This document shows positions 1 to 47,800 of a DNA stretch of 64,000 bases, one piece after another (positions within the stretch are counted from its first letter, which is position 1; the number at the start of each line of letters is the position of its first letter). Source of the DNA: Bispira polyomma (taxonomy: Eukaryota); contig OZ287752.1 in the NCBI GenBank assembly GCA_965649765.1, forward strand, positions 32,488,001-32,552,000, in the 5' to 3' direction. Below the pieces are notes generated by a model, which saw nothing but the letters and a program-made list of their open reading frames with translations, was not told the DNA's origin and searched no databases. A program made the translations under genes and the position numbers.

Positions 1-350
1 ATTGACAAAGTTGTAAAAATCATAGTCCATTTCTAAAGTAAATTTGTGATTAAGGTAACGTTGAGGAGAAAGATATCTATGGGGGGTAAGCGAGGGTAAA
101 GAGATGGGTCTTAAGATTACTTCTAAAGCCAGCGAGTATTTCCTGGGATAGTAAATTGGTTGATAAATTATTCCATAGAGTAGGTGTTGCAACAGAGAAG
201 GTATATAGGATCCAATCCGTTTACTTGTCCTGGTATCAAGACTGAAATTATGTTTCCCCTGTTGAAAGACAACAGTAAGGCAATATATGGGGGCTGACAT
301 AGGTTTACAGCTTTGTATATAGTAATATTGGTCTTGAAAATGATGCGGTA
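1..350 (-). mobile_element. L2-type LINE 3' fragment (cut by the window start)
   Basis: Same block as 6608-7022. The minus strand encodes RIIFKT..YKAV..FSVA.PTLWNNL..RSNLKTHLFTLAYPP. Confidence 0.85.
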
Positions 351-3300
351 CTTGAGTACTTCTTATAGCATCAGAAGGAGCATTTCCTTTTTGTTTCAGA
401 TTGTTTCATTAAACTCTTTTACCTGTTTTTCTTTAATGGTCCCCATGTCTTCTTTATTAACACAGAACGTCTCTAAGGACACACACACACAAATATACTC
501 TTGTACCCAAGTTGGTGCATGAGCAATAGATATACAACATAACTCGGGATAATAAAGAAACCACCACCCATGCCATCTACTCTTTAATAATAGATGTTAT
601 ACATGCAATGTTCTGTCCCTGTAATGGATGCTGTCTCTTTTTTATCTCTTGCTATATGTAACAGAATTACTACTGGTAATAAAGATCATCCACAACTCTC
701 AAGTCTGTTTGAAGATGTAAAAAGAGTTAGAGAGGGATTGGAGAGGAATTGTTGCAGTTTTCTAGTAAAAAGGTTCCAAAGGGTAATTTTGTGTATTCTA
801 TTTACTTTGGTTGTAAAGTATAGTTTTCTCTTATCACATATTGATTACAAGTTGTGGCAATAACATAAATGAACCATGCCTATCCTTTCAACCAATTTCA
901 TGTCAATCAATCCATTAATTATTTATGTAATCTTGGTCACACACCAACCACAATGGGCCCTCGGGAGAAAACATCACATCTCTGGCAAAGGTATTTATTG
1001 AAGCTTTATAGGTTCTCAAACGATAGACATATCTTGATATTTTGTTAAACAAAAATAGTTCTAAATGCTCAACTTGAGTTGACAACATGTTATCCCACTT
1101 ATGTGTTTTTTATGTAATTAAATTTAATGTAATACTATTAATCTAGATATTCCTGATAGATCTACAATATATAATTGAGCTATTAGTGTGTAATGTATGA
1201 TCAAGATAAAAAAATATACAAACAGTGTAACAAATGAACCTGTTGTAAGTTTTGGAATAGATTAGTGAGATGTTCTACGTAGACCAACCTTCCTCTGACA
1301 TCAAGACTCAGTATGTGTGTGTTTGTGTGTGTGTTAAGATTGAGTTAATTACATTGCCTCCAGTGGAATGGCGTAGTCTTCATTTTAAAAGTACTTTAAT
1401 TTAACACACTGGTAAAATCATCTGTCGGAACATCAGGACTTGTAATTCATCTCCTTGTAATAAATGATGAGGAAGTGCATGCTGAAACGATCTTAATGCA
1501 TAACTAATGTTTTACCATTCATCAATTCGGAAGAACAAAATTTCAAACAGCTAATTTTATTAATTATTGTTACTGGTGTGTTGTAGTTTAAATAAATGTA
1601 CAAATTTGGAATAATATTGCTTTATTGCATTAATATCCTTAATTTATTCAAAATAAAAGACTTATATTACAAAAACTTGGCATCTTTAGAAAGGTCAATG
1701 AATGCACAAAACAAACACCAGAGTTAAAAATGCATTTATACATTCCAATATGCTAGAAAGGAAAGATGACAAGATAAACAAGCAACAAATAACTTATAAT
1801 AAGCGTAAACAGCCCTTCCATTCAAAGTGAAAGGTTATCAAGACTAGTGCATCACTAAATTACTTAACTGTGGCCATTAAGTGTTATTTGGGAAGATTAT
1901 TAGCGGATTTTCAGGGTGTATTTACAACTTGATAATTTAAGTACAAGTACAACTTGATAATTTAAGTACAAGCGGGACAATATTTTTAGACATTACGTAA
2001 AATTGCTGGGGGTGTGTGCGTTATTGTTGACCAGAAGGGGTACTTTGTAGTGTCTGTACCTCTGCCCAGGTGACTCATTTCCAAAAAGTGAAAAAAATTC
2101 CTGGATCTGGCTTTCTACTCGAATCTGCTCAAAAAAATTAACGGATTCTTCCTTTGGCCTGTGAGCCATCCATTGGGTTACTACTGAATGTGTCAGGTTA
2201 ATAATTTTTGGTTGCAGGAATATTTCAAAAGGATACATGGTACTGTACTATACTCTGAATACTCTCACTAATACCTGTAGGCGTGTGCTATTACTTAATG
2301 TGCCCTGTATATTTTAGACATTCAAGACAATTTTGTGTATACTTATGTACTGTATCAATATAAATTTTAGCTGGAAGAAACATTTTCTACTTTTTAATTG
2401 TTACAGGAATTTATTCTTATCATAGGCACTCTTAAATTATATATTAATGCTAGTTTCAACTTTAAATTAATTTTCTGTATGATAAGATTGGTACTTTTGT
2501 TATTGTCATCAAACATTTAATGAGAACATTTACAAAGGAAATCACATTTTAAGCCTGATGTTTTAAAATTATTCGCTTTAAACATGTTACAATACTATAA
2601 CAGGATGTATGTCCATCAGAAGTGATACTTCTTGTTGTATTTCACCATGTCTATTGAACTTCTTCCCTCTTTTCACTTTAATGGTCCTCTGGTCATCTTT
2701 GTTTGCACAGAACTTCTCTGTTATAAAGAACATGGTGAACTATAAAGAAGACTCAGAAAAAAATATGTTCTTGTACCTAAGCTGGTTTAGTAGCAATAGA
2801 TAGAGACAATTTATGTGGTGACCAGAAAGAAACTACCACACACAGGAGTTTCCAGTTATTTCTGCCATCATCTGGTCTACAATATTAGACATTGCACATG
2901 CAATGTTCAATGCTTGTAATAGATGCTCTCTGTTCTTTATCACCTGGTATATGTGTAATAGCATTATTACTGATGACAAAAGATCTTCTACAATTCTTAA
3001 GCCTGTACGAAGATATAAAGGACTTAAAGAAGGTACTAGAAGTTGGTGCTGTCAAATGTTCTATCATTGTTATGGTAAATACTGGGCTCTATGTAACGTG
3101 TTCCACCCAGGGTTGAAAACTTTAGCAGTTTTATTACCAGAAAAAAGGCTTGGTTTATAAAGATATTAGATGTTGCTTGCAGTCTCAACAAAATTACATA
3201 CTGCACTATAGTTGATGTATTTACTGACCAAGTGAATGCTAAATGTTGTATGTGATGAATGACATTAGATGAGTAATGGTTATTTTTTGGTTATTTTGTT

Positions 3301-6300
3301 GGTTTTTGGTTAATGGTTATTTTTTGTGTTGGATTTTTGACACTTTGTGGTGGGTGTACTAAGTGTGCTTTTAGTTTACCAGTAAGAGGGTTGTCATGCT
3401 TTAAAGATATAGTCTTCATTAGGTGTTAATGAATGTTATACTCACATGCAAACCCTCATGGTTAGAAGTGATACATTGTGTGAAGCTAAACAAATATACA
3501 ACAATTTTCACAGTTAAAAGGTCCTAAACCTCGAGTAGCAATATTTTTGTACATCGAGTTCTTAAGTAACTGTATATAATGTATTATTTTGCCTATGTGC
3601 ATTAAACTTTTGACACTGTAGAATACTGTATGGAAATATATAATAAATACTGATATTTTATATTATATCTGTTAAATCATAAAAATAAAAATTAAATGGC
3701 ACACAGTAGAGTGTACCTCCCCCAATGGGTAACAGTGGCATAAAGTGAAAACAAACTATACCTTGGTCCAAAATTCCTTTAATTCCCTGTGCCATATTTC
3801 ATCTTTGTTTCTTCCATTTTTAACGTGCCTTATGGATGTAAGGTATTTTTTAAAGTGCAACAACAGAGTCAATTAAAGATAAAAAAAAAACATCGCCAGG
3901 TCATAAGGAAGGATGTGGGAGTGTGCAGGGAGGAAGCTTACATTTAGATTGGGGATTTTTATTTGCTATTTAACTTCAGCAAAAAGTGTTTCTACGGATC
4001 TAAGCTTAATTGGGAGACTATGCAAATCAATTTAGTAGCAATATTGCAAGCCTTGTGATACATAAGGCACCATAGTGGCCAAAAAATTTCCAGATTCCCA
4101 TTTGTATTCGGATCTGCTCCAACAAAAACAAAACCTTCTTGGTGTTCATAGCTAGTCCAGGTGTATTCATCTGATTCATTAGACTAAGAAATTCTAACAA
4201 TTTTGTGAAGGGGTTATTGTACAAAATAGTATTGAACCAAACATCCATAAGAAGTATATCTTCATAGAGAGGAATATTGCAAAGTTTGTTGATTCCTACA
4301 AACCTGAGAGAGAGATCCTACAATAAGGGGTTAACAGAATAATTGTATACTGAGTGGGACATTCAGTACATGTGTACAAGCCATAGTCACATATACAACT
4401 TGGGTCTACTGTCTCCTGTGCGGTTTAACCAGCATATGACTCCTAAACTTATAATTAAAACTAGCGGGCATATATCTTAACAGTTAGAAAAAGAAAATAT
4501 TTTTCATCAGTAAACAACTATAAGCTTAACATTGCCTATGATTGTATTTAATTTTTAAAAACAGGTATAATATATCTTAATAGTTACGACAAGAAAATCA
4601 ACTATGTTGGTAAACAGTGTATTAAATATCTTTCAAAATTAATTTTTTTTAAATTGTATACTGACTGGGACATTGAATTCAATATAAAAAATCTAACATT
4701 ACTTTTTAGCGCTATCCTTTAATACTTACTAACACTGCATTTGGAAATTATGAGGCAAAAACCTCTCAACAGCACTTTTTCTGTTGTCAGTTATGACAGA
4801 AAAGTGACAATAGAAACAAGCTAGGCAAAAGCTCTCCCAACGGCTACTTTGTTATTATTACCTCGGACAGGTCTAATACTTTTTACTGTGTCTTACTATA
4901 CTGACCCCTAAAATTAGTTGGCTAGACTGGGAGAATACTGAAGTGTTAGAGTCAAACAGAAAGTGTTTGGTCTTAAGTGTACACCATTTTCTATTTGTGC
5001 AACAGAGGTTATATAATTGTGCTTGTCTTCATTGGTTAGTTGGTTGGTTTCTTTAATTGTTTGTTTATCACAGTGAAGGAAACTACCAAACTAATTTACA
5101 TAAAATTTTGTTGGGGGATGGGACATGGGCACATGCAGATCCAGGTAGATGTGTGGATAATCAGTTCAAAAGTTATTTGTGTAATCTTGGTTACACAAAA
5201 AACAACAATGGGCAAAGGAAGGACATCACCTTTTTGGTTCAAATAGCTAAAAATTCCAGGTTCCTAAATGATCGCGGTATCTTGATATTTTGCTAAACAA
5301 AAAAAATAAAAAACAACAATATATAATTGAACTATTTGTATGTTAAGTATGAAGAAGATAAAATTATACACACAGTTTAACAAATGAGCATGTTGCAAGT
5401 TTTGGAATAGATTAGTGAGATTATTTACATAGAAGACCATTGCTCTGACATCAAGACTCATTATGTGGGTATTTGTGTGTGTGTGTCAGGAATGGAGTTA
5501 ATTAAATTGCCCCCAGTAAAATAGCTTAGTCTTCCTTTTGAAAGTACTTTAATTTCACACACTGGTAAAAATCATCTGTCATTACATCCAAATTTGAGGA
5601 TAAGCATACTGTAGAATTTAGACATTCATTGAAAATATATATTTGCAGGGACTAAATTCTATAACAGCTAATGTTATTAATACTTGTTTCTGGTTTTCTG
5701 TTGCTTAAATAAATTAATATAGTTTTGGGACAATAATTCTTGATTGCATATTCACAATAAAATATTTATATTACAAAAACTTGGCATCATTAGAAAGTAC
5801 ATTAAATGTACAAAAAAAACACATTAAAAACACATTTATACATTCCACAAGAACAACAAATACGTTATAAAAAATTGTTCTCAAGATCAACTTATAATAA
5901 TTTTTACTTAAATCATTTGGTTTCAAGCTTCTATTAATCTAACTGGTACACAAATAGCACTTCCTGTATTTATGCATGCTTCTGTGACAAATAAAAATTA
6001 TTAAAACAAAAAAAGAAGCGGCACTCTGTAGTGTGCATACCCCTGCCTAGTTGTCGCATTGCCAAAAGGTGAAAACAATTCCTCGATTTCTTCCCAAATC
6101 TGCTCCAAAATTTACTGGATTCTTCCTCGGCCTCTGCCCTTTCTGTTGGGTTACTACTCAATGTGCCAGGTTGATAATCATGGTTGAAGGACCATTTCAA
6201 AAGGAGACATCACTCTATATAATCATGTTAGTGTTCGATACTGTGATTACTCTTACTAATACTAATATGCTTGTGCTGTTACTTAATGTACCAGAGTTTT

Positions 6301-6607
6301 TAGAAATTGACTGGAATAAGATTTAATTATAGGACATTTTCAACTTATAGATTTTTACAAATTTAAAGTTTCATTTAGAATTAATTTTGTCTTTCTAAGC
6401 TGATTAAGTTAAATTATTGAGAGAGTTTGTTTTATTTAACTCAAGTCATGAATAATTACGCTGTAACTATAAGAGGGGAATTACATTTGAAGTCAAGTTC
6501 TATTTGAAAAGGAGACATCACTCACCAAAACCATGGTATTATACTGTTACTCAGCACACTGTACTAATAACATCAAAAGGAGTACTTCTTTTGGCATCAG
6601 AAGGAGT
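1..6607. repeat. Array unit 1 (monomer A ~369-2613, monomer B from ~2614)
   Basis: Colinear with the other units. Lacks block Q (7640-8070 in unit 2) and the ~670 bp SINE-containing segment (junction ~5159). Confidence 0.85.
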
Positions 6608-7022
6608 GATTATGATATGGTAGATTTTTAACATGCCTAATTGATGCCAGGCATCTTCTAAAGCACAACATCATTCACAAAGTTGTAAAAATCATAGTCC
6701 ATTTCCAAAGTAAATTTGTGATTGTGGTAAAGTGGAGGAGAAAGATATCTATGGGGGGTAAGCGAGGGTGAAGAGATGAGTCTTAAGATTACTTCTAAAG
6801 CCAGAAAGCATTGCCTGGGATCGTAAATTGGTTGATAAATTATTCCATAGAGTAGGTGCTGCAACAGAAAAGGTATATAGGATCTAATCTGTTTACTAGT
6901 CCTGGTATCAATACTGAAATTATGTTTCCCCTGTTGAAAGACAACAGTAAGGCAATATATGGGGACTGACATAGGTTTACAGCTTTGTATGTAGTAATAT
7001 TGGTCTTGAAAATGATGCGGCA
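6608..7022 (-). mobile_element. L2-type LINE 3' fragment at a unit junction
   Basis: Minus strand gives RIIFKTNITTYKAV...FSVAAPTLWNNL...FRSNLKTHLFTLAYPP*. The 3' UTR end (ctttagaagatgcctggcatcaattaggcatgttaaaaat) is homologous to 25610-25650. Confidence 0.88.
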
Positions 7023-10000
7023 CATGAATACTTCTTATAGCATCAGAAGCAGTACTTCTGTTATTTCAGATTGTTTCATTAAACCCTTTCACCCCTTTTC
7101 TCTTTAATGGTCTCCATGTCTTCTTTATTAGCACAGAACATCTCTGTTATAAAGGAGACACACACAAATATCTTCTTGTACCTAACTTGGTGCATGAACA
7201 ATAGATATACAACATATATCTGGGGACAATAAAGAAACCGCTGCCCATGTCATCTGCTCTTCAATAATAGATGTTATACATGCAATGTTTTGTCCCTGTA
7301 ATGGATGCTCTCTCTTTTTTATCTCTTGCTATATGTAACAGAATTACTACTGATAATAAAGATAATCTACAACCCTCAAGTCTGTTTGAAGATGTAAAAA
7401 GAGTTGGAGAGGGGCTTAGAGTAGAGAGGAATTGTTGCAGTTTTCTAGTAAAAAGGTTCCAAAGGTAGTTTTGTGTATTCTATCTTCAACTCTCAAGTCT
7501 GTTTGAAGATGTGAAAAGAGTTCGAGAGGGGATTGGAGAGGAATTGTTGCAGTTTTCTAGTTAAAAGGTTCCAAAAGGTAGTTTTGTGTATTCTATTTAC
7601 CTTGGTTGTAAAGTATAGTTTTCTCTTATCACATATTGATTACAAGTTCTGACAATAACATATCTCTTAAATGATTTTTACTTAACCAAACCTGGTTTGT
7701 CGATGATGTCATAGTTCCTGCTAAGGCAATTTTTCTTAGACCCAAAATAGTTAGCTAAGCAATAAACACATTAAGCCCCTCTCAAATACACTGATAGTTT
7801 TTACCTGTTCAATGCAATGGTTTGTCGGATTACACAGAAGATTAATATATCAATATAATTAACTGTGTAGCTTCAGTGGCTGGTATTTTAATATTGTCAT
7901 CGTTTATCTTGCCGTAACTAACTCATGTGTACTTAGTACCAGTTTAACACATTAGTCAACACTGTGTTTATGTCTATTGATATTCCTTGTCAACAGTAAA
8001 ACTCATATCCTTTTTAAAATATTATATTAATAGATCAAAATTTCATACTTTATATTTTAGATCTGCTTAAACATTTAATGAACCATGCCTATCCTTTCAA
8101 CCAATTTCATGTCAATCAATCCATTAATTATTTATGTATTCTTGGTCACACACCAACCACAATGGGCCCTCGGGAGATAACATCACATCTCTGGCAAAGG
8201 TATTTATAGAAGCTTTATAGGTTCTCAAACAATAGACATATCTTGATATTTTGTGAAACAAAATAGTTCTAAATGCTCAACTTGAGTTGACAACATGTTA
8301 TCCCACTTATGTGTCTTTAATGTAATTAAATTTAATGTAATACTATTAATCTAGATATGCCTGATAGATCTACAATATATAATTGACCTATTAGTATGTT
8401 ATGTATGATCCAGATAAAAAATATACAAACAGTGTAACAAATGAGCCTGTTGTAGGTTTTGGAATAGATTAGTAGACCAACATTCCCCTGATATCAAGAC
8501 TCAGCATGTGGGTGTTTGTGTGTGTGTTAAGATTGAGTTAATTACATTGCCCCCAGTGGAATGGCGTAGTCTTCATTTTAAAAGTACTTCAATTTAACAC
8601 ACTGGTAAAATCATCTGTCGGAACATCAGGACTTGTAATCCATCTCTTTGTAATAAATGATGAGGAAGTGCGTGCTGAAACGATCTTAATGCACAACTAA
8701 TGTTTTACCATTTATCAATTCGGAAGAACGAAATTTCAAACAGCTAATTTTAGTAATTATTGTTACTGGTGTGTTGTAGCTTAAATAATTGTACAAATTT
8801 GGAGTAATATTGATTTATTGCATCAATATACTAAATTAATTCCAAAATAAAAGGCTTATATTACAAAAAACTTGGCATCATCAGAAAGGGCAATGAATGT
8901 ACAAAATAAATACACGAGTTAAAATACATTTATACAATCCATATGCTAGAAAGAAAAGTTGACAAGATAAACAAGCAACAAATAACTTATAATAAGCGTA
9001 AACAGCCCTTCCATTCAAAGTAAAAGGTTATCAAGACTAGCGTACCACTAAATTACCTAACTGAGGCCATTAAGTGTCATTTGGGAAGATTATCAGCGGA
9101 TTTTCAGGGTGTATTTACAACTCTAAGGTAAACAGGGGATTGATAATTTAAATACAAGTGGGACAATTTTTTTAGACATTATGTAAAATTGCTTCTGGAA
9201 GTAGGGGTGGGTGTGTTGACCAGAAAGGGTATTCGGTAGTGTCTATACCTCTGCCCAGGTGACTCATTTCCACAAAGTGAAAGAAATTCCTGAATCTAGC
9301 CTTTTACTTGAATCTGCTCCAAAAATTTAACCGATTCTTCCTTTGGCCTGTGTGCCATCTGTCGGGTTACTACTAAATGTGTCAGGTTAATAATTTTGGC
9401 TGCAGGAACATTTCATAAGGATACGTGGTACTGTACTATACTCTGAATCCTTAATACCAGTAGGCTTGTGCTATTACTTCATGAACCCTGTATATTTTAG
9501 ACATTCAAGACAATTTTGTGTAAACTTATGTACTGTATAAATATAAATTTTAGCTGGAAGAAACTCATTTATTTTCTACTTTTTAATTATTACGGGAATT
9601 TATTTTATTATAGGCTTTCTTAAATTATATATTAATGCTAGTTTTAACTTTAAATTAATTTTCTGTATGATAAGATTGGTAGTTTTGTTATTGTCATCAA
9701 ACATTTAATGAGAACATTTAAGGAGGAAATCACATTTCAAGCCTGATGTTTTAAAATTATCCACTTTAAACATGTGACAATACTATAACAGGATGTATGT
9801 CCACAGAACTTCTCTGTTATAAAGAACATGGTGAACTATAAAGAAGACACAGAAAAAAAATATGTTCTTGTACCTAAGCTGGTTTAGTAGCAATAGATAG
9901 AGATACTTTATGTGGTGACCAGAAAGAAACTACCACGCACAGGAGTTTCCAGTTATTTCTGCCATCATTTGCTCTACAATAATAATGTTCACATAATGTT

Positions 10001-12087
10001 CAATGCTTGTAATAGATGCTCTCTGCTCTTTATCACGTGGTATTTGTGTAATAGCATTATTACTGATGACAAAAGATCTTCTACAATTCTTAAGCCTGTA
10101 CGAAGATATAAAGGACTTAAAGAAGGTACTAGAAGTTGGTGCTGTCTTGTCAAATGTTCTATCATTGTTATGGTAAATACTGGGCTCAATGTAATGTGTT
10201 CCACCCAGGGTTGAAAACTTTAGCAGTTTTATTACCAGAAAAAAAGGCTTGGTTTATAAAGAGTTTAGATGTTAGTTGCAGTCTCAACAAAATTACATAC
10301 TTCACTATAGTTGATGTATTTACTGGCCATGTGAATGCTAAATGTTGTATGTGTATGTGATGAATGACAACAGATGAGTAATGGTTATTTTTTGTGTTGG
10401 ATTTTTGACACTTTGTGGTGGGTGTACTGAGTGCGCTTTTAGTTTACCAGTAAGAGTGTTGTCATGCTTTGAAGATATAGTCTTCATTAGGTGTTAATGA
10501 ATGTTATACTCACATGCAAACCCCCATGGTTAGAAGTGATACATTGTGTGAAGCTAAACAAATACACAACAATTTTCACACTTAAAAGGTCCTAAACCTC
10601 GAGTAGCAATATTTTTGTACATCGAGTTCTTAAGTAACTGTATATAATGTATTATTTTGGCTATGTGCATTGAACTTTTGATACTGTAGAATACTGTATG
10701 GAAATATATAATAAATACTGATATTTTATATTATATCTGTGAAATCATAAAAATAAAAATTAAATGGCACACAGTAGAGTGAATACCTCCACCAATGGGT
10801 AACAGTGGCATAAAGTGAAAACAAACTATACCCTGGTCCAAAATTCCTTTATTTCCCTGTGCCATATTTCATCTTTGTTTCTTCCATTTTTAATGTGCCT
10901 TATGGATGTGAGGTATTTTCTGAAGTGCAACAACAGAGTCAATTAACCAATGGACAGATCGAAAAAAACATCGCCAGGTCATAAGGAAGGATGTGGGAGT
11001 GTGCAGGGAGGAAGCTTACATTTAGATTAGGGATTTTTTTATTTGCTACTTAACTTTAGCAAAAAGTGTTTCTACTAATCTAAGCTTAATTAGGAGGCTA
11101 TGCAAATCAATTTAGTAGCAATATTGCAAGCCTTGTGATACATAAGGCACCATACTGGCCAAAAAATTTCCAGATTCCCATTTGTATTCGGATCTGCTCC
11201 AACAAAAACAAAAACTTCTTGGTGTTCATAGCTAGTCCAGGTGTATTCATCTGATTCATTAGACTAAGAAATTCTAACAATTTTGTGAAGGGGTTATTGT
11301 ACAAAATAATATTGAACCAAACATCCGTAAGAAGTATATCTTAATAGAGAGGAATATTGCAAAGTTTGTTGATTCCTACAAACCTGAGAGAGAGATCCTA
11401 CAATAAGGGGTTAACAGAATAATTGTATACTGACTGGGACATTCAGTACATGTGTACAAGCCATAGTCACATATACAACTTGGGTCTACTGTCTCCTGAG
11501 CGGTTTAACCAGCATATGACTCTTAAACTTATAATTAAAACTAGCGTGCATATATCTTAACATTAACAAAAAGGAAATATTTTTATGAGTAAACAACTAT
11601 AAGCTTAACATTGCCTATGATTTTTATATTTAATTTTTAAAAACAAGTATAATATATCTTAATAGTTACGACAAGAAAATCAACAATGTTGGTAAACAGT
11701 CTAGTAAATATCTTTCAAAATCAATTTTTTTTTTAAATTTTATACTGGCTGGGACATTTAATTCAATGTAAAAAATCTAAATTTACTTTTTAGCACTGAT
11801 CTTTATTACTTACTCACACTGCATTTGGAAAATATGGGGCAAAAATCTCTCAACAACACTGTTTCTGCTGTCAGTTATGACAGAAAAGTGACAATAGAAA
11901 CAAGCTATGCAAAAACTCTCCCAACGGCTACTTTGTTATTATTACCTCAGACAGGTCTGATACTTTTTACTGTGTCTTACTATACTGACCCCTAAAATAA
12001 GTTCGCTAGACTGGGGAAATACTGAAGTGTTAGAGTCAAACAGAAAGTGTTTGGTACTAAGTGTACACCATTTTCTATTTGTGCAAC

Positions 12088-20100: not shown

Positions 20101-20255
20101 TAATTACTCTGTAACTGTAAGAGGGAAATTACATTAGAAGTCAAGTTCTATTTGAAAAGGAGACATCACCCTGGAAAACCATGGTATTATACTGTTACTC
20201 ACTACAATGTACTAATAACATCAAAAGGAGTACTTCTTTTGACATCAGAAGGAGT
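14171..20255. repeat. Array unit 3 (several internal deletions)
   Basis: Colinear with the others, with deletions near 14170, 14815, 15240, 16950 and 17830. Confidence 0.85.
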
Positions 20256-24326: not shown

Positions 24327-24500
24327 CATTTTTAACGTGCCTTATGGATGTGAGGTATTTTCTAAAGTGCAACAACAGAGTCAATTAACCAATGGACAGA
24401 GCGAAAAAAAACATAGCCAGGCCATAAGGAAGGATGTGGGAGTGTGCAGGGAGGGAGCTAAGGGTAAGCGAGTTTAAAGTGATAGGTTAAGGCATTTAAA
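24327..24500 (-). mobile_element. Short L2 3'-end remnant in monomer B (homologues ~3815-3937, 10885-11016, 16860-16935, 32356-32530, 37320-37500)
   Basis: Minus strand has tttaaactcgcttacccttag (FKLAYP*) followed by the same 3' UTR motif (gacctggc...gttgcactttagaaaa...catccataaggcacgttaaaaat). Confidence 0.75.
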
Positions 24501-24698
24501 ATTACAATAAAGGACTATGAAAAACCAACCTTACATTTAGATTGGGGATTTTTGTTTGCTATAATAATCTATCTTAATAGTTACGACAAGAAAATCAACA
24601 ATGTTGGTAAACAGTGTAGTAAATATCTTTTAAAATCAATTTTTTTTAAATTGTATGCTGGCTGGGACATTCAATTCTATATAAAAAATCTTACATTA

Positions 24699-25661: not shown

Positions 25662-28170
25662 ATTACTTTTTAGCACTGACCTTTAATACTTACACTACAT
25701 TTGGAAATTATAGGGGCAAAAAACCTCTCAACAACACTTTTTCTATTGTCAGTTATGAGAAACAAGCTAGGCAAAAACTCTCCCAATGGCTACTTTGTTA
25801 TTACCTCGGACAGGTCTGATACTTTTTACTCTGTCTTACTATACTGACCCCTAAAATTAGTTGGCTAGACTGGGGGAATACTGAAGTGTTAGAGTCAAAC
25901 AGGAAGTGTTTGGTCTTAAGTGTACACCATTTTCTATTTGTGCAACAGAGGTTATATAATTGTGCTTGTCTTCATTGGTTGGTTGGTTGGTTTCTTTTAT
26001 TGTTTATTTATCACAGTGAAGGAAACTACTGAACCAATTTACATAAAATTTTGGTTGGTGGAGGGGACATGGGCAAACGCAGATCCAGGTAGATGTGACA
26101 CAAGAATTGTTCACACCATTTGGTTCTTTGGTACTTTATTAATTTATCCAATCTGAATGGATGGGGTAGTGTGGTTTTTAACACAGTAGACTTTTTCATA
26201 CTGGACCTTTCAAACCATTATGGCATTGGAAACTCTACCCATCCTAGGTTGAGAAGTATACCACTTGACTATAATTTTTAGGTCTTCAATGTGATCTTTA
26301 CTCATGGTCTTTTGATATGGACAGATTCATAAGCACAGATAGATAGACTAATATCTAAAAACAAACGTGCATTTTGACAGGTCTGTCATAGTACAGCTTG
26401 TAAATGTTAGGTCTTATCAATATTGAGATACATAATTGGAAAAGTTCTTGGTTAATTTTTAATGTCAGTCTGAGGTTAGACCATATATTAATCAATGTCT
26501 CCAAGATTCGTTGGCCAGCCTCTAGAATTGGACAAAGTGACATTTTAATTGGTTATCCAAGCCACTGTATAATGTCAGGTAATGCCATGCTCAAATCAAA
26601 CCCAGGTTTTCTGTGTTCCTTTTTAAGATTTACCCACAAGAGCACTATGGCATATATACATGTGGTGTTAAGGAATTAACCTAATTTCATTGTAATGTCT
26701 TAAAAAGAATTTCTGGGTCAACCTTGCTGCTTGGATCCGCCTCAACATTTAATGGACCATGTCTGTCCTTCCAAACAATTTCAAGTCAATCAATTCACAA
26801 GTGATATTTTGCTAAAAAAATATATAATTGAACTATTTGTATGTTAAGTATGAGAAAGATAAAATTTTACACACAGTGTAACAAATGAGCATGTTGCAAG
26901 TTGTGGAATAGATTAGTGAGATGTTCTACATAGAAGACCATTTCTCTGACATCAAGACCCAATATGTGGGTATTTGTGTGTGTGTGTCAGGAATGGAGTT
27001 AATTAAATTGCCCCTAGTGGAATAGCTTAGTCTTCATTTTGAAAGTACTTTAATTTCACACACTGGTAAAAATCATGTCATTACATCCAGATTTGTAATC
27101 CATCTCTTTGTAATAAATGATGATGAAGTGCGTGCTGAAACGATCTTTTTGCACAACTAATCATGTTTTAGCATAGACATGAGCATACTGTAGAATTTAG
27201 ACATGCATTGAAAATATATATATGCAGGAACTAAATTCCATAACAGCTAATGTTAATAATACTTGTTTCTGGTTTTCTGTTGCTTAAATAAATTAATATA
27301 GCTTTGGGACAATAATTCTTGATTGCATATTCACAATAAAATTTTTATATTACAGAAACTTGGCATCATTAGAAAATGCATTAAATGTACAAAACAAACA
27401 CATTAAAAACACATTTATACATTCCACAAGAACAACAAATATGTTATAAAACATTGTTCTCAAGATCAACAAGCAACAAACAACTTATAATAATTTTTAC
27501 TTAAATCATTTGGTTTCAAGCTTCTATTTATCTAACTGGTACACAAATAGCACTTCCTGTATTTATGCATGCTTCTGTGACAAATAAAAATTATTAAAAC
27601 AAAAAAAAAAAGTGGCACTCTGTAGTGTGCATACCCCTGCCTAGTTGTCGCATTGCCAAAAGGTGAAAACAATTCCTCAATTTCTTCCCAAACCTGCTCC
27701 AAAATTTACTGGATTCTTCCTCGGCCTCTGCCCTTTCTGTTGGGTTACTACTCAATGTGCCAGGTTGATAATCATGGTTGAAGGACCATTTCAAAAAGAG
27801 ACATCACTCTATAAAATCATGTTAGTGTTCGATACTGTGATTACTCTTACTAATACTAATACGCTTGTGCTGTTACTTAATGTACCAGAGTTTTTAGAAA
27901 TAGACTGGAATAAGATTTAACTATAGGAAATATTCAACTTATAGATTTTTACAAATTTAAAGTTTCATTTAGAGTTAATTTTGTCTTTCTAATCTGATTA
28001 AATTCAAGTCATGAATAATTACTCTGTAACTGTAAGAGGGGAATTACATTTGAAGTCAAGTTCTATTTGAAAAGGAGACATCACTCACCAAAACCATGGT
28101 ATTATACTGTTACTCAGCACACTGTACTAATAAAATCAAAAGGAGTACTTCTTTTGGCATCAGAAGGAGT

Positions 28171-28585
28171 GATTATGATATGGTAGATTTTTAACATGCC
28201 TAAGTGATGCCAGGCATCTTCTAAAGCACAACATCATTCACAAAGTTGTAAAAATCATAGTCCATTTCCAAAGTAAATTTGTGATTGTGGTAAAGTGGAG
28301 GAGAAAGATATCTATAGGGGGTAAGCGAGGGTGAAGAGATGGGTCTTAAGATTACTTCTAAAGCCAAAAAGCATTGCCTGGGATCGTAAATTGGTTGATA
28401 AATTATTCCATAGAGTAGGTGCTGCAACAGAAAAGGTATATAGGATCTAATCTGTTTACTAGTCCTGGTATCAATACTGAAATTATGTTTCCCCTGTTGA
28501 AAGACAACAGTAAGGCAATATATGGGGACTGACATAGGTTTACAGCTTTGTATGTAGTAATATTGGTCTTGAAAATGATGCGGCA
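28171..28585 (-). mobile_element. L2-type LINE 3' fragment at a unit junction
   Basis: Nearly identical to 6608-7022; the ORF-track peptides are almost the same. Confidence 0.88.
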
Positions 28586-31500
28586 CATGAATACTTCTTA
28601 TAGCATCAGAAGCAGTACTTCTGTTATTTCAGATTGTTTCATTAAACCCTTAAACCCCTTTTTCTCTTTAATGGTCTCCATGTCTTCTTTATTAGCACAG
28701 AACATCTCTGTTATAAAGGAGACACACACAAATATCCTCTTGTACCTAAATTGGTGCATGAGCAATAGATATACAACATATATCTGGGGACAATAAAGAA
28801 ACTACCACCCATGTCATCTGCTCTTCAATAATAGATGTTATACATGCAATGTTCTGTCCCTGTAATGGATGCTGTCTCTTTTTTATCTCTTGCTATATGT
28901 AACAGAATTACTACTGATAATAAAGATCATCTACAACCCTCAAGTCTGTTTGAAGATGTAAAAAGAATTGGAGAGGGGCTTGGAGAGGAATTGTTGTAGT
29001 TTTCTAGTAAAAAGGTTCCAAAAAGTAGTTTTGTGTATTCTATCTACAACCCTCAAGTCTGTTTGAAGATGTAAAAAGAGTTGAAGAGGGGATTGGAGAG
29101 GAATTGTTGCCGTTTTCTAGTCAAAAGGTTCCAAAAGGTAGTTTTGTGTATTCTATTTACTTTAATTGTAAAGTCTAGTTTTCCCTTAGTTCATATTGAT
29201 TACAAATTCTGGTAATAACAAATCTCTTGAATGATTTTTACTTAACCAGGCCTGGTTTGTCGATGATGTCATAGTTCTTGCTAAGGTAATTTTTCTAAGA
29301 CCCAAAATAGTTAGGTGAGCAATAAACAGATTAAGCCTCTCTCAAATACACTGATACTTCTTTACCTGTTTAATCAAATGGTTTGTCTGATTACACAGAA
29401 GATTAATATATCAATATAATTAACTGTGTAGTTTTAGTGGCTGCTATTTCAATATTGGCATCTTTTATCTGGTCGTAACTAACTCATGTGTACTTAGTAT
29501 CAGTTTAACACATTAGTAAACAATGTGTCTATTTTTATTGATACTCCTTGTCAACAATAAAACTTGTATAGTTTATTAAATTGTTTAGTAATGAATCAAA
29601 ATTTCATACTTTATATTTTAGATCTGCTCCAACATTTAATGAACCATGCCTATCCTTCCAACCAATTTCATGTCAATCAATCCACTATTATTCTAGATAT
29701 GTGTGATAGATCTACAATATATAATTGGTCTATTAGTATATTATGTATGATGAAGATAAAAAATATACAAACAGTTTAACAAATGAGCCTGTTGTAATTT
29801 TTGGAATAGATTAGTGAGATGTTGTACATAGACCAACCTTCCTATGATATGTGGTATGTCAGTATGTGGGTGTTTGAGTGTGTGTTAATATTGAGTTGAG
29901 TTCCAACCTTCCTTGAGTTAATAACATTGCACCTCAGTGGAATGGTGTAGTATTGATTTTAAAAGTACTTTTATTTAACACACTGGTAAATTTATCTGTC
30001 AGAACATCAGGATTTTAATCCATCACTTTGTAATAAATCATAAGGAAGTGCGTGCTGAAATGATTTTAATGTACAACTAATGTTTTACCAGTTATCAATT
30101 TGGAAGAACGAAATTTCAAACAGCTAATTTTATTAATTATTGTTACTGGTGTGTTGTAGCTTAAATAAATGTACAAATTTGGAGTAATATTGCTTTATTG
30201 CATCAATATCCTTAATTTATTCCAAAATAATAGGCTTATATTACAAAAAACTTGGCATCATCAGAAAGAGCAATGAATGCACACAATAAACACCCAAGTT
30301 AAAAATACATTGATACATTCCAATATGCTAGAAAGGAAAGATGACAAGATAAAGAAGCAACAAACAACTTATAATAAGCGTAAACAGCCCTTCCATTTAA
30401 AGTAAAAGGTTTTCAAGACTAGCGTACCACTAAATTACCTAACTTTGACTATTAAGTGTCATTTGGGAAGATTATCAGCGGATTTTCAGGGTGTATTTAC
30501 AACTTGATAATTTAAGTACAAATACAACTTGATAATTTAAGTACAAGTGGGACAATTTTTTTAGACATTACGTAAAATTGCTTCTGGAAGTGGGGGTGGG
30601 TGTGTTATTGTTGACCAGAAGGGATACTCTGTAGTGTCTATACTTCTGCTCAGGTGACTCATTTCTAAAAAGTAAAAGAAATTCCTGGATCTGGCTTTCT
30701 ACTCGAATTGGCTACAAAAACTTAACGGATTCTTCCTTTGGCCTATGTGCCATCTGTCGGGTTACTACTAAATGTGTCAGGTTAATAATTTTTGGTTGCA
30801 GGAACATTTCAAAGGGATACATGGTACTATACTATACTCTGAATTCTCTCACTTATACCAGTAGGCGTGTGCTATTACTTAATGTACCCCGTATATTTTA
30901 GACATTCAAGACAACTTTGTGTATACTTATGTACTCTATAAATATAAATTTTATCTGGAAGAAACTCACTCATTTTCTACTTTTTAATTGTCACAGAAAT
31001 TCATTCTTATTATAGGCATTCTTAAATTATATATTACTGCTAGTTTCAACTATGAATTAATTTTCTCTAAGATAAGACTGGTAGTTTTCTTTTGTCATTA
31101 AACATTTAATCTAACTGTAAGGAGAAAATTACATTTCAAGCCTGATATTTTAAAAATATCAGCTTTAAACATGTGACAATACTATCAAAGGATATATGCC
31201 CATCGGAAGCAGTACTTGTATTTTACCATGTCTATTGAACCTCTTCCCTCTTTTCACTTTAATGGTCCTCTGGTAGTCTTTGTTAGCACAGAATCTCTCT
31301 TATAAAGGACATGGTGAACTATAAAGAAGACACAGAAAAAATATGTTCTTGTACCTGAGCTGGTTCAGTAACAATAGATAGAGACAATTTATGAGCTGAC
31401 CAGAGAGAGACTACCATGCACAGGAGTTTCGAGTTATTTCTGCAGTCATCTGCTCTACAATAATAGACATTGCACATGCAATGTTCAATGCTTGTAATGG

Positions 31501-34007
31501 ATGCTCTCTGTTCTTTATCACGGTGCTATATGTGTAATAGCATTATTACTGGTGACAAAAGATCTTCTGTGATGCTTAAGCCTGTTCGAAGATATAAAGA
31601 AGTTCAAGAAGGGCCTAAAAGTTGGTGCTGTCTAGTCAAATTTCCATCTTTCTTATAGTAAATACTGGGCTCTATGTAATGTGTTCAACTGTGGGTTACA
31701 AACTTGAGCAGTTTTATTACCAGAAAAAAGGATTGGTTTATAAAGAGATTAGATGTTGGTCTCAACATAATTGTTTATTGCACAATAGTTGATGCACCTA
31801 CTGACCATGTGAATGCTAAATGTTGTATGTAATAAATGACATTGGATGAGTGATAGTAATTTTTTGTTTTAGATTTTTGACACTTTGTGGTGGGTGTACT
31901 GAGTGACTTTAGTTTAACAGTGAGAAGTTTGTCATGATTTGAACATAGAGTCTTCATTAGGTGTTAATGAATGTTATACTCCCATGCAAACCCTCACGGT
32001 TAGAAATGATACATTGTGTGAAGCTAAACAAATATACATTAATTTTTACAGTTTAAAGATCCTAAACCTCAAGTAGCAATATTTTTTACATCGATTTCTC
32101 AAGTAAATGTATGTAATGTATTATTTTGGCTATGTGCATTAAACTTATGATGCTGTAGAATACACATCAAAAATATATAAATACTGATATTTTATATTAT
32201 ATCTCTGAAATTATAAAAATTAAATGGCATGCAGCAGAGTGAATAGCTCGACCAATGGGCCACAGTGGCATAAAGTGAAAAAAAATTATACCCTAGTCTG
32301 CTCCCAAATTCCTTCCTATTCCTTGTGCCATATTTCATTTTTTTTTTTTTTTTTTCATTTTTAATGTGCCTAATGGATGTGAGGTATCTTCTAAAGCACA
32401 ACAACAGAGTCAAATAACCAATCAACAGGTCGATAAAACATACCCAGGTCATAAGGAAGAATGGGGGGATGTCTAGGGAGGGGACTACGGGGTAGGCGAG
32501 TTTAAAGAGATAGGTTAAGGCATTTAATATTTACAGGATTACGAAAAATCAACCTTACATTTACATTGGGGATTTTTGCTTGCTATATTTAGTGATCTAA
32601 GCTCAACTAGGAGACTATGCAAATCAATTTAGTAGCAATATTGCAAGCCTTGAGATACATAAGGCACTTTAGTGGCCAAAACTTCCCAGATTATCCTTTG
32701 TATTCGGATCTACTCCAACAATTCAAGGATTCTTTGTTTTAACCAACAGACATTAGCAAAAACAAAACCTCCTTTTTTTCCATAGCTAGTCCAGGTGTAT
32801 TCATCTAATTTATTCGACTCAGAAATTCTAAAAATTTTGTAAAGGGGTTATTGTACAAAATAGTAGTGAACCAAACAACAATATCTTCATAGAGAGGAAT
32901 ATTGCAAAGTTTGTTGATTCCTACAAACGTGAGAGAGAGATCCTACAATATAATGGGTTTACAGAGTAATTGTATAACTGGGACATTCAGTACATGTGTA
33001 CAAGCCATAGTCGCATATACAACTTTGGTCTATTTTCTCTGATTTAACCAATATATGACTCCCAATCCTATAATTAATATTAGTGTGCATATATTTTAAC
33101 AGTTAGAAAAATAGAATATTTTTTATCAGTAAACAACTAGCTCAAAATTGCTTATGATTATATTTAATTATTAAAAATAGGTTTAATATATATCTTAATA
33201 GTTACAACAAGAAAATCAACAATGTAGGTAAACAGAGTAGTAAATATCTTTCAAAATCAATTTTTTTTTAAATTGTATACTGGCTGGGAGATTTCATTCA
33301 ATATATGTGTATAATCTATATTCACATAAATTTGAAACAACTGTGTGTTACGATATTGACCCCCAAAACAATTAGTTAGCTAGATTGGCGGAATACTAAA
33401 GTGTTGTAGTCAAACAGGAAATGGTTGGTCTTAAATGTACACTATTTACTATTTGTGCTACAGAGGTGAAATTCCTGCTTGTGTTCATTGGTTGGTTTCT
33501 TTAATTGTTTGTTTGTCACCATGATTGCTTGGTTTAAACTACTGAACCCATTTACATAAAATTTGCAGGAGGGATGGGACATGGGGAAACACAGATCCAG
33601 GTAGAAGTGTGGATACAAGAATTGTTCACACTATTTTGTGCTGTGGTACTTTATTGAGTGCACTTCTAGTTGTTGTTGTTGGACTTCTATGTCACAATTT
33701 TGTATGGATGGGATAGTGTGGTTTTTAACACAGTGAAGTACTCATATTGGACCTTTTAAACCATTATGGCCTTGGAAACTCGACCCATACTAGGTAGAAA
33801 AGTATACCACTTGACTATAATATCCAGGTCTTCAATGTGATCTTTACTCACGATCTTCTAATATGGACAGATTCATTGGCACAGATAGATAGGCCCATAT
33901 CTAAGAAAAAATGTGCAGTTTGACAAGTTTGTCATAGTACAGCTTGTAAATGTTAGGTCTTATTACTATTAGGATACATTATTGGAAAAGTTCTTGGTTA
34001 ATTTCTA

Positions 34008-34206
34008 ACCTCAGTCAGGGGTTAGACCATTTATGTATCAATGTCTCAAAGATTCGCAAGCCAGGCTCTAGGATAAGACCCAGTGACATTTTTATTGGCT
34101 ATCTAAGCTACTATGTATCTGCCTTGACCCGGTAATGCCAGGTTAAGATAAAACCCAGGTTTTCTGTGGTCCTTATCAAGTGTGTTAACCACTAGGGCAC
34201 CATGGC
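34008..34206 (-). mobile_element. Same SINE family inside monomer B (also ~12600-12775, 18385-18578, 26460-26652; remnant 38530-38645)
   Basis: Reverse complement ggtgccctagtggttaacacacttg...acctgggtt...atagtagcttagatagcc...ataaatggtc aligns by eye to 58741-58920. Confidence 0.75.
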
Positions 34207-35345
34207 ATATACACAGTGTTTAGCAATTAACCTAATTTCATTTTAATGCCTTAAAAAGAATTTGTGGGTCCACCTTGCTACTTGGATCTGCTCTAACATT
34301 TAATGGGCCATGCCTATCCTTCCAAACAATTTCATACCAATCAGTTAACAAGTTGTTTTGTGTAATCTTGGTCCCATACAAATCACAATGGGCATGGGAG
34401 AACACATCATCTCTTTGCCAAAAATAGCTATACAAATTCCATAGGTTCTTAAATGATAGACATATCTTGATATTCAGCTAAACAAAAACAGTTTCTAAAT
34501 GCTCAACTTGAGCCTACAACATGTTACTATACTTATCTAATGTTTCTTTAATGTGACTAAATTATTCCATATATGCCTGATAGATCGACAATATATAATA
34601 GAACTATTTGTATGTTATGTATGATAAAATAAAATTATACACACAGTGTAACAAATGAGCATGTTGCAAGTTTTGGAATGGATTAGTGAGGTTATCTACA
34701 TAGAACAGCATTCCTCTGACATCAAGACTTAATATGTGGGTATTTGTGTGTGTGTGTCAGGAATTGAGTTAATTAAATTGCCCCCAGTGGAATAGCTTAG
34801 TCTTCATTTTGAAAGTACTTTAATTTCACACACTGGTAAAAATCATCTGTCATTACATCCAGATTTGTAATCCATCTCTTTGTAACAAATGATGATGAAG
34901 TGCGTGCTGAAACGATCTTATTGCAACTAATCATGTTTTAGCACATGTATATTTTTTTTGTAAACATCTGATTGTTGAAGAAATAGACATAAGCATACTG
35001 TAGAATTAAGACATGCATTGAAAATATATATTTGCAGGAACTAAATTCAATAACAGCTAATCTTATTTAAACTTGTTTCTGATTTTCTGTTGCTTAAATA
35101 ATGAATATAGTTTGGGACAATAACTCTTTATTGCATATTTACAATAAAAGATTTATATTACAAAAACTTGGCATCATTATAAGGGCATTAAATGCACATA
35201 ACAAACACATTAAAAAATACATTTATACATTCCATAAGTACAACAAATATGTTATAAAAGATAAACAAACAACTTAAAATAATTTTTACTTAAATTGTTT
35301 GGTTTCCAGCTTTTATTTATCTAACTGGTACACAAATAGCACTTC

Positions 35346-38300
35346 CATTTAAAGTGCAAGATTACCAATAGTAAGGTATCACTACATAACCTGACTGTGG
35401 CTGTTAAGTGTCATTTGGGAAGATTATCAGCTGATTTTCAGGGTGTATTTACAACTCTCAGGTAAACGGGAGATTGATAATTTAAGTACAAGTGAGGCAA
35501 TGTTATGGTCATTATGTAAAATTGCTTCTGGAAGTGAGTATGTTATTGTTGACCAGAAGGGGCACTCTGTAGTGTGTATACCTCGGCCCAGGTGCCTCAT
35601 TGCCAAAACGTGAAACATATTCCCAGAGCTGGCTTTCTACTCAGATCTTCTCCAAAAATGTAATGCATTCTTTCTTTGGCCTGTGTGCCATCCCTTGGGT
35701 TACTACTGAATGTGTCAGAGAGATAATTATGGTTCAACGGACCATTTCAAAAATATACTTGATATTGTACTATACTCTGAATACTGTCACCAATACCAAT
35801 AGGCTTGTTCTATTACTAATGTACACCGTATATTCAAGACAATTTTGTGTATACTTATGTACTCTATAAGTAAAGATTTTAGCTAGAAGAAACTCACCCC
35901 ACTTTTTAATTGTTACGGGTCTTTATTTTTTATTATAGGGCATTCTTAAATTTTCTATTAATGTAAGTTTAACTTGGAATTAATTTGTTCCATCATAAGA
36001 TTGGTACTTTTCTTGCCTGATGTTTTAAAATAAGTAGTTTTAGTTTTTTATATGTGATTAATAACATTAGATGAGTGATGGTAGGAACAAGGAGCCATTA
36101 AGAAGCCATGTTTTTGACACTTTGTGGTGGATGTATTGGGTGCCTTTTAGTTACAAAGTGAGAGGGTTCTCATGCTTTGAACATATGGTCTTCATTATGT
36201 GTACACCTTTATGAATGTTATACTCCCATGCAAACCCTCATTGTTAGGAATGATACATTGTGTGAAATATATATCCATTTTCACCGTTGAAAGGTCCTAC
36301 ACCTTGAATAGCGATGACTACTGTGTAGTGTACCAAGATAACCAAGTGGCATTCACAAACATACATCTTTAATCCCCTTTAGATTTAATTAATTTCTAAA
36401 GCTGGTTAACAGTAGATACACATCTACTGACCTAAAAGATAAGGCAATACTCCACATTCACACTGATTGTCACTAAAGCAAGGATGTCAGAGATTTAGTT
36501 AATGCGATAGTTTCCGACTGAGGTCATGTTTGTATGGCCATAAAGATATAGTTAAGTCACAAAGAGATTAAGGAGCTCTCTAATACACTTGTACTTTTCC
36601 CCTATTCAGTCAAATGTTTCGTCTGATTACACAGAAGATTAATATATCAATATCATTTAAATGAGTATAGATTTAGTAGTTGCTATATTAATATTGCAAT
36701 TCTTCAGCTGCTTATAATGAATCCATGTGTACTTAGTACAGTTTAACACATTAGTAAACACCTGTGTATGTCCAGTGCTGCTTTTTGTCATTAATAAAAA
36801 CTGGTATCCTTTATTAAGTATTATATTGATGAATTAAACGTTATCAAACATATTAATAATGAAAATATAAAATAACTCATAACAAAAAATTTATAGTAGA
36901 TATCTGGAAACACTTCCTGAGTTTGGGAGAAAACGTAAAACCTATCTCTTCACACTGGGTTACCCCTTCACATCCCTCCCTATACACCCTAATATCCTTT
37001 TTTTACGACCTTGTTATGTTTTTCAACTTCATGTTTTTGTTAATTAAGTCTCCTGTTATACTTTAGAAAATGCATTCACGCTAAAAACACAAATGCAATA
37101 TACTTTATTTAATACACATCAAACTGAAAATTTAAAAATACTGATATTTCATCATATATCTTTAAAATTATAAAAGTTGAATAACACACATCAGAGTTAA
37201 TACCTTTATCAAGAAGCCACAGTTGCAAAAACGTAAAAATATTCTGGATCCACCATTTTACCTGGATGTACTCCAACACATAATGGAGTTTGCTTGTCCC
37301 AAGCCACATACCTGTGCCAAATTTCAAATTTGTATTTTGCATTTTTGACTGTGTATTATTGATGTGAGGCATCTTCTAAAGTAGATCAACAAAATCAATA
37401 AACCAAGCAAGAAGTCCCAAAAACATTGGCAGGTCTTCAGGATAGATGTGGGGAATACAGGGAAGGAACTAACAGGGCAAGCAAGTTTCAAGAGATAGGT
37501 TACTCTTGTTGTTTATAGTGATCTAAGATCAACTGGGTGACCATCTAAATCAAATTAGTAGCAATATTGCTATACTAATAAGGCACCATAGTGTCCACAA
37601 ATATTGAAGAAGAAAACAATTCCCAGATCCTCGTTTGTATTCGGATCTACTCCAACAATACAAGGAAACCATATTTTAACCAACAGAAATCGTCAGAAAC
37701 AAAACCGTCTTTGTGGTCATAACTAGTCGAGGTTTATTCATCTGATTTATTGGATTCAGAAATCCTAACTATATTGTACAGGTTGTGCAAAATAGTCAAC
37801 CAAATAACTGTAAGGAGAATATCGTCACAGAGAGGAATATTGCTAGTTTGTTATTTCCTGTAAACGTGAGAGACAGATCCTACAATTAAAGGGGGTGTTA
37901 ACAGAGTAACTGTATACTGGCTGGGACAATTTATTCAGTACATGTGTATAAGCCATATTTTTCGGATAAACTTTCAAACAACTTTATTCACATTTGTTGA
38001 AGGGAAATAATTTCCTCCATATTCTATTAATTGAACTTCTCTTTCTCTGTTTCCAGAGAGTAAAATACTTATCTACTGACCTTCAATATTTACCGCCCAC
38101 TGCATTTGGAAATTCGGGCGCAAAGAACTTTCAACAACCTCTTTACCCTTTTTTCTGCTGTCAGTTATGAACAGAAGGTCTGATACTTGTTGCTGTGTGT
38201 TACTATATTGCCGCCACACACACGCACACAAAACAAATATAAGTTGGCTAGACTCGTGGAGTACTTAGGGGTTGGAGTTAAACAGGGTATTGGCTTAATT

Positions 38301-38650
38301 CTCTACCATTTACTACCTCTGCAAAGGTCCTACATCCGTTAGTTGGTTTATTTTATGACCAGGTAGAATTACATAAAGGAAACTGCTGAACTACTGTCAT
38401 TTAGTGAATAGATGGTGTATAGGGCACAAGAATAATTAAATTATGAAGAAGGATTTTATGGTAGAAAATTCATTAACGATATTGGCAATAATTAAGACAT
38501 CCAACTAGGCTGTTAACTAGAGAATGACAGTTAGGTATCATTGTCACCAACGTTCGTTAGCTGGTCACAGGTGGTAGGGCCCCATCATAGTAGGGTATCA
38601 TTTAACTGGTTATATGAGTGACTATGTATCCCCTTCTACCTGGGATCCTG
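35346..38650. repeat. Diverged terminal segment of the array (monomer C)
   Basis: Degenerate matches to A-specific blocks (35346-35560, 36560-36830) and B-specific blocks (36110-36310, 37130-38320, SINE remnant 38530-38645). Confidence 0.8.
36905..37105 (+). mobile_element. Short L2 3'-end remnant unique to the terminal monomer
   Basis: aaaacctatctcttcacactgggttacccc (KTYLFTLGYP) followed by a degenerate 3' UTR. Confidence 0.7.
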
Positions 38651-47776: not shown

Positions 47777-47800
47777 TATATATATATATATATATATATA
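47777..47800. repeat. (TA)n microsatellite
   Basis: Read directly. Confidence 0.95.

Follow-up and report, generated by a model that had tools for sequence, protein, structure and literature searches.

Macrosatellites of the D4Z4 and DXZ4 type are typically made of near-identical, homogenised units, and their copy number differs from one individual to another. In alpha satellite, as described in the portions of PMC8122249 and PMC5737470 cited here, monomers of 171 bp form higher-order repeat (HOR) units that are 97-100% identical, vary by ~2% in length and have a centromere function. The cited part of PMC5737470 characterises regular HORs by a unit divergence below ~5% and a length variation of ~2%, and it describes NBPF as a 3-mer HOR of ~1.6-kb monomers. 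A human LTR megasatellite on 13q11, 18p11 and 21q11 forms arrays of 4-25 units covering 14-80 kb; according to the cited portion of PMC2588610, its gene-less ~3.5-kb monomers are arranged in higher-order units, carry marks of TE insertion and deletion and of unequal crossing-over, and are wholly LTR-derived, with a 6-mer unit and a family spread over 25 loci. The potato repeat 2D8 combines two diverged monomers of ~3 kb in a unit of 5.9 kb, is pericentric and is derived from the rDNA intergenic spacer (excerpt of PMC8122249; the length also in excerpts of PMC2656509 and PMC4411372). Human T2T composite repeats are described, in the cited part of bioRxiv 10.1101/2021.07.12.451456, as multi-kb tandem units that mix TE pieces with non-TE subunits and arise via unequal crossing-over; some of their arrays are 80-95% identical, and they overlap staggered segmental duplications. 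A literature search turned up no description of a comparable array for annelids or molluscs, although the locus analysed here may still have been reported.

The window is the whole 64,000-nt stretch of Bispira polyomma DNA that was analysed. Self-BLAST showed that plus-strand repeats fill positions 1-38,645, and mapping of 25 reference segments revealed a strict alternation of A and B monomers from base 1 to 38,645. About eleven monomers of 2.5-5 kb were delimited, namely five B (3.2-4.6 kb), four A (2.5-3.5 kb), one partial A and one chimeric end monomer, termed T. They are given below together with the neighbouring gene; the starts of A2 (~12250), A3 (~18030), A4 (~26108) and T (~33690) are approximate.

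1-865, plus strand: A0, an A monomer cut by the window start so that its 3' part remains (LINE piece V and block Z), grouping with A in the tree of block Z
868-5158, plus strand: monomer B1 (W, X, X2, X3, Y, Z and B-only segments), from segment mapping and trees
5159-8076, plus strand: monomer A1, without segment C, from segment mapping and trees
8077-12240, plus strand: monomer B2, with the 5' part of Z deleted, from segment mapping
12250-14767, plus strand: monomer A2, with LINE piece V and most of Z deleted, from segment mapping
14768-17980, plus strand: monomer B3, with most of W, X2 and X3 and part of Y deleted, from segment mapping
18030-21497, plus strand: monomer A3, from segment mapping and trees
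21498-26100, plus strand: monomer B4, with a private LINE insertion, from segment mapping and dimer comparison
26108-29637, plus strand: monomer A4, from segment mapping and trees
29638-33615, plus strand: monomer B5, from segment mapping and trees
33690-38645, plus strand: chimeric end monomer T, from trees and segment mapping
43132-44823, minus strand: intronless D1-like dopamine receptor ORF of 563 aa, outside the repeat (7tm_1 E 6e-66)

The part common to A and B consists of five blocks, W, X, X2, Y and Z, which amount to ~1.5 kb per monomer and follow one another in a constant order, separated by differing spacers, in almost all monomers, the remainder being type-specific. In B1, block X lies at 1162-1515, Y at 2035-2304 and Z at 2614-3060. 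At the left end of the window, positions 1-801 match 6673-7483 by 90% in self-BLAST; on this side the repeats run on leftwards, and the array edge lies outside the 64-kb window. The right edge is at 38,645, where the last homologous fragment (38531-38645) was found with an E-value of 1.6e-5, and it is 4.49 kb away from the receptor stop (43132). The receptor is transcribed towards the array. Its 7tm_1 domain and its named relatives, which are called 'dopamine receptor 1(-like)' and among which Capitella teleta gave the best named match (61% over 56% of the query), confirm the neighbour as a dopamine receptor.

The original prediction, made from the sequence alone, of an array of at least 38 kb composed of A-B units of 6-8 kb was correct as to the extent of the array, the size of its units, where it ends on the right and its distance of 4.5 kb from the receptor stop. 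The examples it gave were likewise recovered: 369-790 against 2614-3060 as 475-736 against 2745-3033 (68%) plus 369-474 against 2614-2719 (73%), 1190-1450 against 5335-5590 as 1164-1747 against 5316-5847 (73%), and 2040-2310 against 6020-6310 as 2033-2304 against 6014-6292 (73%). The five units it described have to be qualified: the dimers are real, but the fifth runs into the more diverged chimeric monomer that makes up the last 5 kb.

Copies of one type were expected to be closer to each other than to the other type, and the identities in blocks X, X2, Y and Z agree, with 89-98% for A-A and 86-99% for B-B against 67-87% for A-B. The separate A and B clades that a monomer tree should display were obtained in four of four blocks, with bootstrap values of 100, 100, 98-100 and 100 for X, X2, Y and Z. 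The A-B identity in block X (78-87%) lies above that in Y and Z (67-79%), and this closer match was read as conversion because X is not less variable within B. The dimer periods are 7209, 6691, 6730 and 8140 bp, a range of 20% of the mean. Over ungapped columns the dimers are 88.4-93.5% identical in 10/10 pairs, corresponding to a divergence of 6.5-11.6%; these figures were preferred to the MAFFT dimer identities of 81-93%, which take in a misaligned insertion in unit 4. Perfect matches between units extend over at most 284 bp, followed by 180 bp for the next longest, and according to the segment mapping every monomer carries deletions of its own. Units 1 and 2 (93.5%), 1 and 4 (93.5%) and 2 and 4 (93.4%) are equally similar, with no gradient.

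The likeness to the HOR architecture of alpha satellite that had been proposed holds in part. Both consist of two monomer types that alternate, copies of one type resembling each other more than those of the other type (PMC8122249, in the cited portion). An HOR is recognised by head-to-tail monomers in a repeating order that are 20-35% diverged within the unit, and the array agrees with this in its A-B alternation and its A-B identity of 67-87% in the ~1.5 kb per monomer that can be aligned. The monomer order and the clades thus correspond to alpha satellite, whereas the unit divergence of 6.5-11.6% (against less than ~5%) and the length range of 20% (against ~2%) do not; the monomers here are multi-kb, and the units are 88-94% identical. 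Similarly, the name macrosatellite is appropriate for tandem units on the kilobase scale (dimers of 6.7-8.1 kb) but not for their degree of homogenisation, which is 88-94% with private indels and a private insertion. The idea that multi-kb HOR monomers are unusual is not supported, as they have precedents in the human LTR megasatellite and in potato 2D8, and no new mechanism is needed. The locus differs from the LTR megasatellite in consisting mostly of low-copy DNA with LINE tails, in its dimer unit and in being seen at one locus. In contrast to 2D8, it has no rRNA family in the window (Rfam), is seemingly low-copy and lies beside a gene, and it differs from the T2T composite repeats in lineage and sequence and in that no captured gene was found. 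It shares with gene-less composite repeats and megasatellites a multi-kb unit with TE fragments, no gene found within it and traces of unequal crossing-over. The array works like these gene-less multi-kb repeats; it is neither a regular alpha-type HOR nor a homogenised macrosatellite.

The transposable-element pieces in the units are the following.

24699-25665, plus strand: 5'-truncated non-LTR retrotransposon with broken RT frames, 967 bp, in unit 4 only (Pfam RVT_1 E 7.4e-10)
3816-3930, minus strand: dispersed-repeat tail common to B1-B5 and T, from self-BLAST and segment mapping, in a high-depth bin
6624-6965, minus strand: LINE 3' piece V common to A0, A1, A3 and A4, from segment mapping, in high-depth bins

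The retrotransposon in unit 4, a putative L2/CR1-like element, has ATTA at both junctions and an empty site in unit 1, and the summed contig depth exceeds 10,000 in its bin. Further copies of the dispersed-repeat tail are located at 51503-51613 and 57521-57616, and another closes the unit-4 LINE at its 3' end. The pieces at 3816-3930 (in B and T) and 6624-6965 (in A) occupy fixed places and are older pieces of the dispersed family to which the unit-4 LINE belongs. Within the array, summed depths of hundreds to thousands were confined to bins that contain dispersed-repeat pieces. The proposed origin from TE-littered intergenic DNA is supported by these LINE pieces and by the segment mapping.

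The end monomer T is A-like in its 5' part up to ~35340 (82-98% to A) and B-like beyond that point (73-87% to B), without Z. It carries segment D (36443-36841), otherwise restricted to A, between segments B2 and B3, and it terminates in a fragment of segment C. A-only segments (C, Xa2, D) and B-only segments (W2, X3, Y2 and segments B2-B7) are thereby found in T in a single colinear order, which suggests an ancestral unit of ~6 kb. An ancestral order of C-W-X-X2-X3-Y-Z-B1-B2-D-B3-...-B7 (~6 kb) would give both A and B by deletions, and T itself may have arisen when A and B crossed over onto an older copy at the array edge. Among the B monomers, 71/117 informative sites join B3 and B5, 21 join B1 and B2, and 8 join B2 and B4. 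Among the A monomers, A1 and A4 share 10 sites in a single tract at 27600-27900, and A2 and A4 share 10 sites after 29400. Sites supporting the same split are clustered in B (58 adjacent vs 47 expected, P=0.002) as well as in A (29 vs 15 expected, 0/5000 permutations); this clustering was attributed to exchange at offsets of one, two and three dimers, because such exchange would be expected to leave a patchwork of this kind.

Unequal crossing-over likely made the array, beginning with the tandem duplication of an ancestral unit of ~6 kb of ordinary intergenic DNA that would already have contained the LINE tail. Between the two copies a divergence of 13-33% then built up, and the loss of different segments, in a presumed order, turned them into A and B. 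Out-of-register exchange would then have multiplied the A+B dimer to at least five copies, presumably because the best-matching partner was by that time two monomers away. Later exchanges at one-, two- and three-dimer offsets could have created the patchwork ancestry, and one A/B crossover could have created T. Homogenisation lags behind, as each unit has private deletions, one has a private LINE, and substitutions are evenly spread. The predicted course of duplication, divergence and re-amplification as a dimer is in line with the segment mapping, the A/B clades and the composition of T. The locus represents a small, clean example of an HOR arising from ordinary DNA, in which 38 kb display a probable ancestral segment order, the A/B split, patchwork exchanges and decay.

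Contigs from three runs (two samples of one study) contain 94-97% of the words of 33600-43500; one sample, comprising runs X1 and X2, may be the assembly's own, and both samples may come from one individual. They cover 30/30 bins in each of the stretches 1-20000 and 25001-45000. Unit-specific exact-match contigs of 265-756 bp, too short for counting units, were found in both samples across the array. The longest exact array pieces had a depth of 9-22 in run X1, compared with 11-13 for unique flank, and of 46-123 in run X3, compared with 74-95, contig depth being a poor measure of copy number and no contig spanning the array. Bases 1-20000 gave 69 contig differences, and all of the 40 listed carry the letter of an in-window paralogue, which is that of another unit for 39 and that of T for the last. 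The contig depths and the in-window letters of the differences weakly indicate a low-copy array. Depths of 2-3 times that of the flank were reached by some short contigs that carry unit-4 letters, so the array may comprise a few more units beyond the left end of the window. Contig joints were also considered as unit deletions and were rejected, their sides being 20-34 letters long and mostly in TE pieces; the joint 29288-29372 matches a deletion in the paralogue A3.

Permutations detected no conserved island in the clean B core (window minima P 0.48-0.99, variance P 0.08-0.44). An apparent excess of conserved windows in B came from an alignment containing the misaligned unit-4 insertion, and it was gone on the clean core. 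In A, windows with at most three variable sites lay slightly above the 95th percentile (0.357 vs 0.346), and ten tests for invariant cores across all monomers gave best P values of 0.03 and 0.04, uncorrected; both results were counted against a neutral reading. These even-rate tests are blind to very short elements such as tiny exons, mature miRNAs and binding sites. A dead LINE piece (16/323 columns variable) varies less than blocks X, Y and Z. A Pfam search with 124 stop-to-stop frames of at least 58 aa yielded the LINE RVT_1 domain as the sole match passing the cut-off. The Pfam matches to Pannexin_like, WIF, Perm-CXXC and ArlX were below threshold (E 0.0015-0.0065) and judged to be chance. 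Rfam gave 0 matches at gathering score in the 64-kb window and, at E<=5, two chance-level bacterial matches in 300-8100 (E 1.6 and 3) and none in 29600-38700; a tRNA search of the window found none. That no gene is recognised in the units, as stated originally, is upheld by the blank Rfam, tRNA, Pfam, frame and protein searches, which could have missed unlisted small RNAs and exons of very small size. On the sequence tests, neutral decay is favoured over the functions that had been suggested for the array, i.e. a copy-number-variable regulator, a piRNA source or a centromere-like array. An old, low-copy, neutrally decaying dimeric block duplication of intergenic DNA, likely functionless itself, is the reading we favour, with a probability of roughly 0.8.

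The main candidate for a functional element within the units is a hairpin.

3375-3465, minus strand: hairpin in B1-B5 and T, an unsupported pre-miRNA candidate, from folding z-scores

Each unit might be a small functional non-coding cassette, containing either this pre-miRNA-like hairpin in B or enhancers of the receptor, and the array would then be a dosage cluster under selection. On the minus strand, which is that of the receptor, the hairpin has z-scores of -5.1, -3.6 and -3.8 in 3/6 copies, whereas the remaining three reach only -2.3, -2.1 and -1.0. Variable columns are fewer in the 5' arm (4/33) than in the 3' arm (12/38), a miRNA-like asymmetry that was picked after the fact; the hairpin's block is retained in T at 79-85%, and the array begins 4.5 kb from a neural gene. 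However, compensatory changes were seen in 0/47 predicted pairs and the covariation term was unfavourable (+3.13); these pairs and the weak folding in 3/6 copies speak against a tandem miRNA cluster. Other windows in unit 1 fold equally well (3/318 at z<=-4), and the hairpin is outside the top 8 windows of the z-score scan (step 45), in which low-z windows numbered 8/318 in unit 1, 0/192 in the adjacent flank and 9/208 in a second control. The units contain no Rfam family and no conserved island, and C..D box pairs are scattered over 5 places and absent from some monomers. A functional cassette is consequently considered unlikely, and we hold it quite improbable that a lineage-specific regulatory cluster lies on the receptor's strand, with B hairpins processed to small RNA or monomers acting as multiplied enhancers and the number of units tuning the D1 receptor. 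The array would matter more only if its units regulated the adjoining dopamine receptor or yielded small RNAs. The constant order of the five blocks between differing spacers, together with open frames of 87-112 codons in some copies of Y and Z, could also be explained by monomers that are pseudogenised copies of a small multi-exon gene with W, X, Y and Z as former exons. Yet frameshifting gaps predominate (59/71 gaps within blocks W, X, X2, Y and Z have lengths not divisible by 3), and stops occur in every frame, with stop variants in 60/60 frame tests; the crude omega was 0.53-1.82, calculated without transition correction, so that values of 0.5-0.9 were not taken as selection. The shared blocks are no more conserved than the unshared ones, varying in 200/1175 columns (17.0%) compared with 200/1100 (18.2%, P=0.47). 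The protein search found no relative of the Z frame, a six-copy Y profile had 0 matches in 1.84 billion proteins, and the ESM Atlas returned nothing above 0.80 for the best frames. A tblastn search with 120 receptor proteins gave no match in the array better than E 0.003, and decayed receptor copies were rejected as the source of the units on this search. A former multi-exon gene appears very unlikely.

Two further explanations concern what lies beyond or beneath the assembled sequence. The window could cover the frayed edge of a large macrosatellite or centromere-like array under active homogenisation, with a uniform core to the left. The open left end, the most diverged monomer at the right edge, as expected of satellite edges, the similarity of units 1 and 2, which are as alike as any pair (93.5%), and the few short contigs at 2-3 times flank depth would all be consistent with such an edge. 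Units 1 and 4 (93.5%) and units 2 and 4 (93.4%) match equally well, however, leaving no similarity gradient, the non-TE bins stay within ~4 times flank depth, in-window copies account for 40/40 of the listed differences, and an intact gene is only 4.5 kb away; a CENP-B box was not found in the array, but it is expected only in mammals, so this says little here. An edge of this kind is considered highly improbable. Haplotypes or errors placed in tandem by the assembly have a practically negligible chance of explaining the array. Although the contigs are short, none extends across the whole array, and runs X1 and X2 may derive from the very sample that was assembled, the five units are 6-12% apart, which is beyond what two haplotypes give, and both samples show unit-specific exact contigs (265-756 bp) and cover 30/30 bins in both stretches.

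A second, smaller block triplication, with copies that are 88-91% identical, is located at 53475-58082 in the same window and shows that the block-duplication process is not rare at this locus.

The D1-like dopamine receptor adjoining the array was compared with its database relatives. Its closest relative, P0001, matches it at 76% along its entire length, and P0003, also a D1-like protein, matches it at 62%; the longest contig is 1,082,274 long for P0001 and P0003 alike, and the two are suggested on this ground to be linked D1 paralogues of one relative. The receptor carries a long N-terminal extension of about 150 residues ahead of the first transmembrane helix, which is Ser/Thr-rich and contains N-x-S/T sites, and an extension of the same character is also present in P0001 and in a further relative, P0002. 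An assembly gap of 160 bases (46916-47075) lies 2.1 kb upstream of the receptor start codon.

Also 5' of the receptor, a second tandem block duplication was observed at 53475-58082, with three units of 1.2-1.7 kb each that are 88-91% identical. Smaller duplications and an insertion were located within this block and inside the array monomers:

57257-57427, 84-bp tandem pair inside the upstream block duplication
28929-29160, 113-bp tandem pair at the end of block Z (one of the blocks common to A and B monomers), a small tandem duplication in monomer A4
7370-7585, tandem pair in monomer A1 resembling that of A4
1923-1972 (monomer B1) and 30498-30546 (monomer B5), 25-bp tandem pair common to both
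36899-37085, minus strand, insertion of the dispersed LINE tail family, private to the end monomer T

Possible mobile elements were found elsewhere in the window, among them the following reading frames:

62325-63727, plus strand, 316-aa ORF followed by an overlapping 167-aa frame

A Pfam search with the 316-aa ORF gave no match; the two frames resemble a gag region such as that of Ngaro/DIRS-type retrotransposons. A z-score folding scan revealed a very stable hairpin at about 47790-47970 (z about -9), and an inverted repeat pairs 47967-48114 with 48745-48925, its arms being 71% identical. Together, the hairpin and inverted repeat (47790-48925) probably constitute a non-autonomous DNA transposon.
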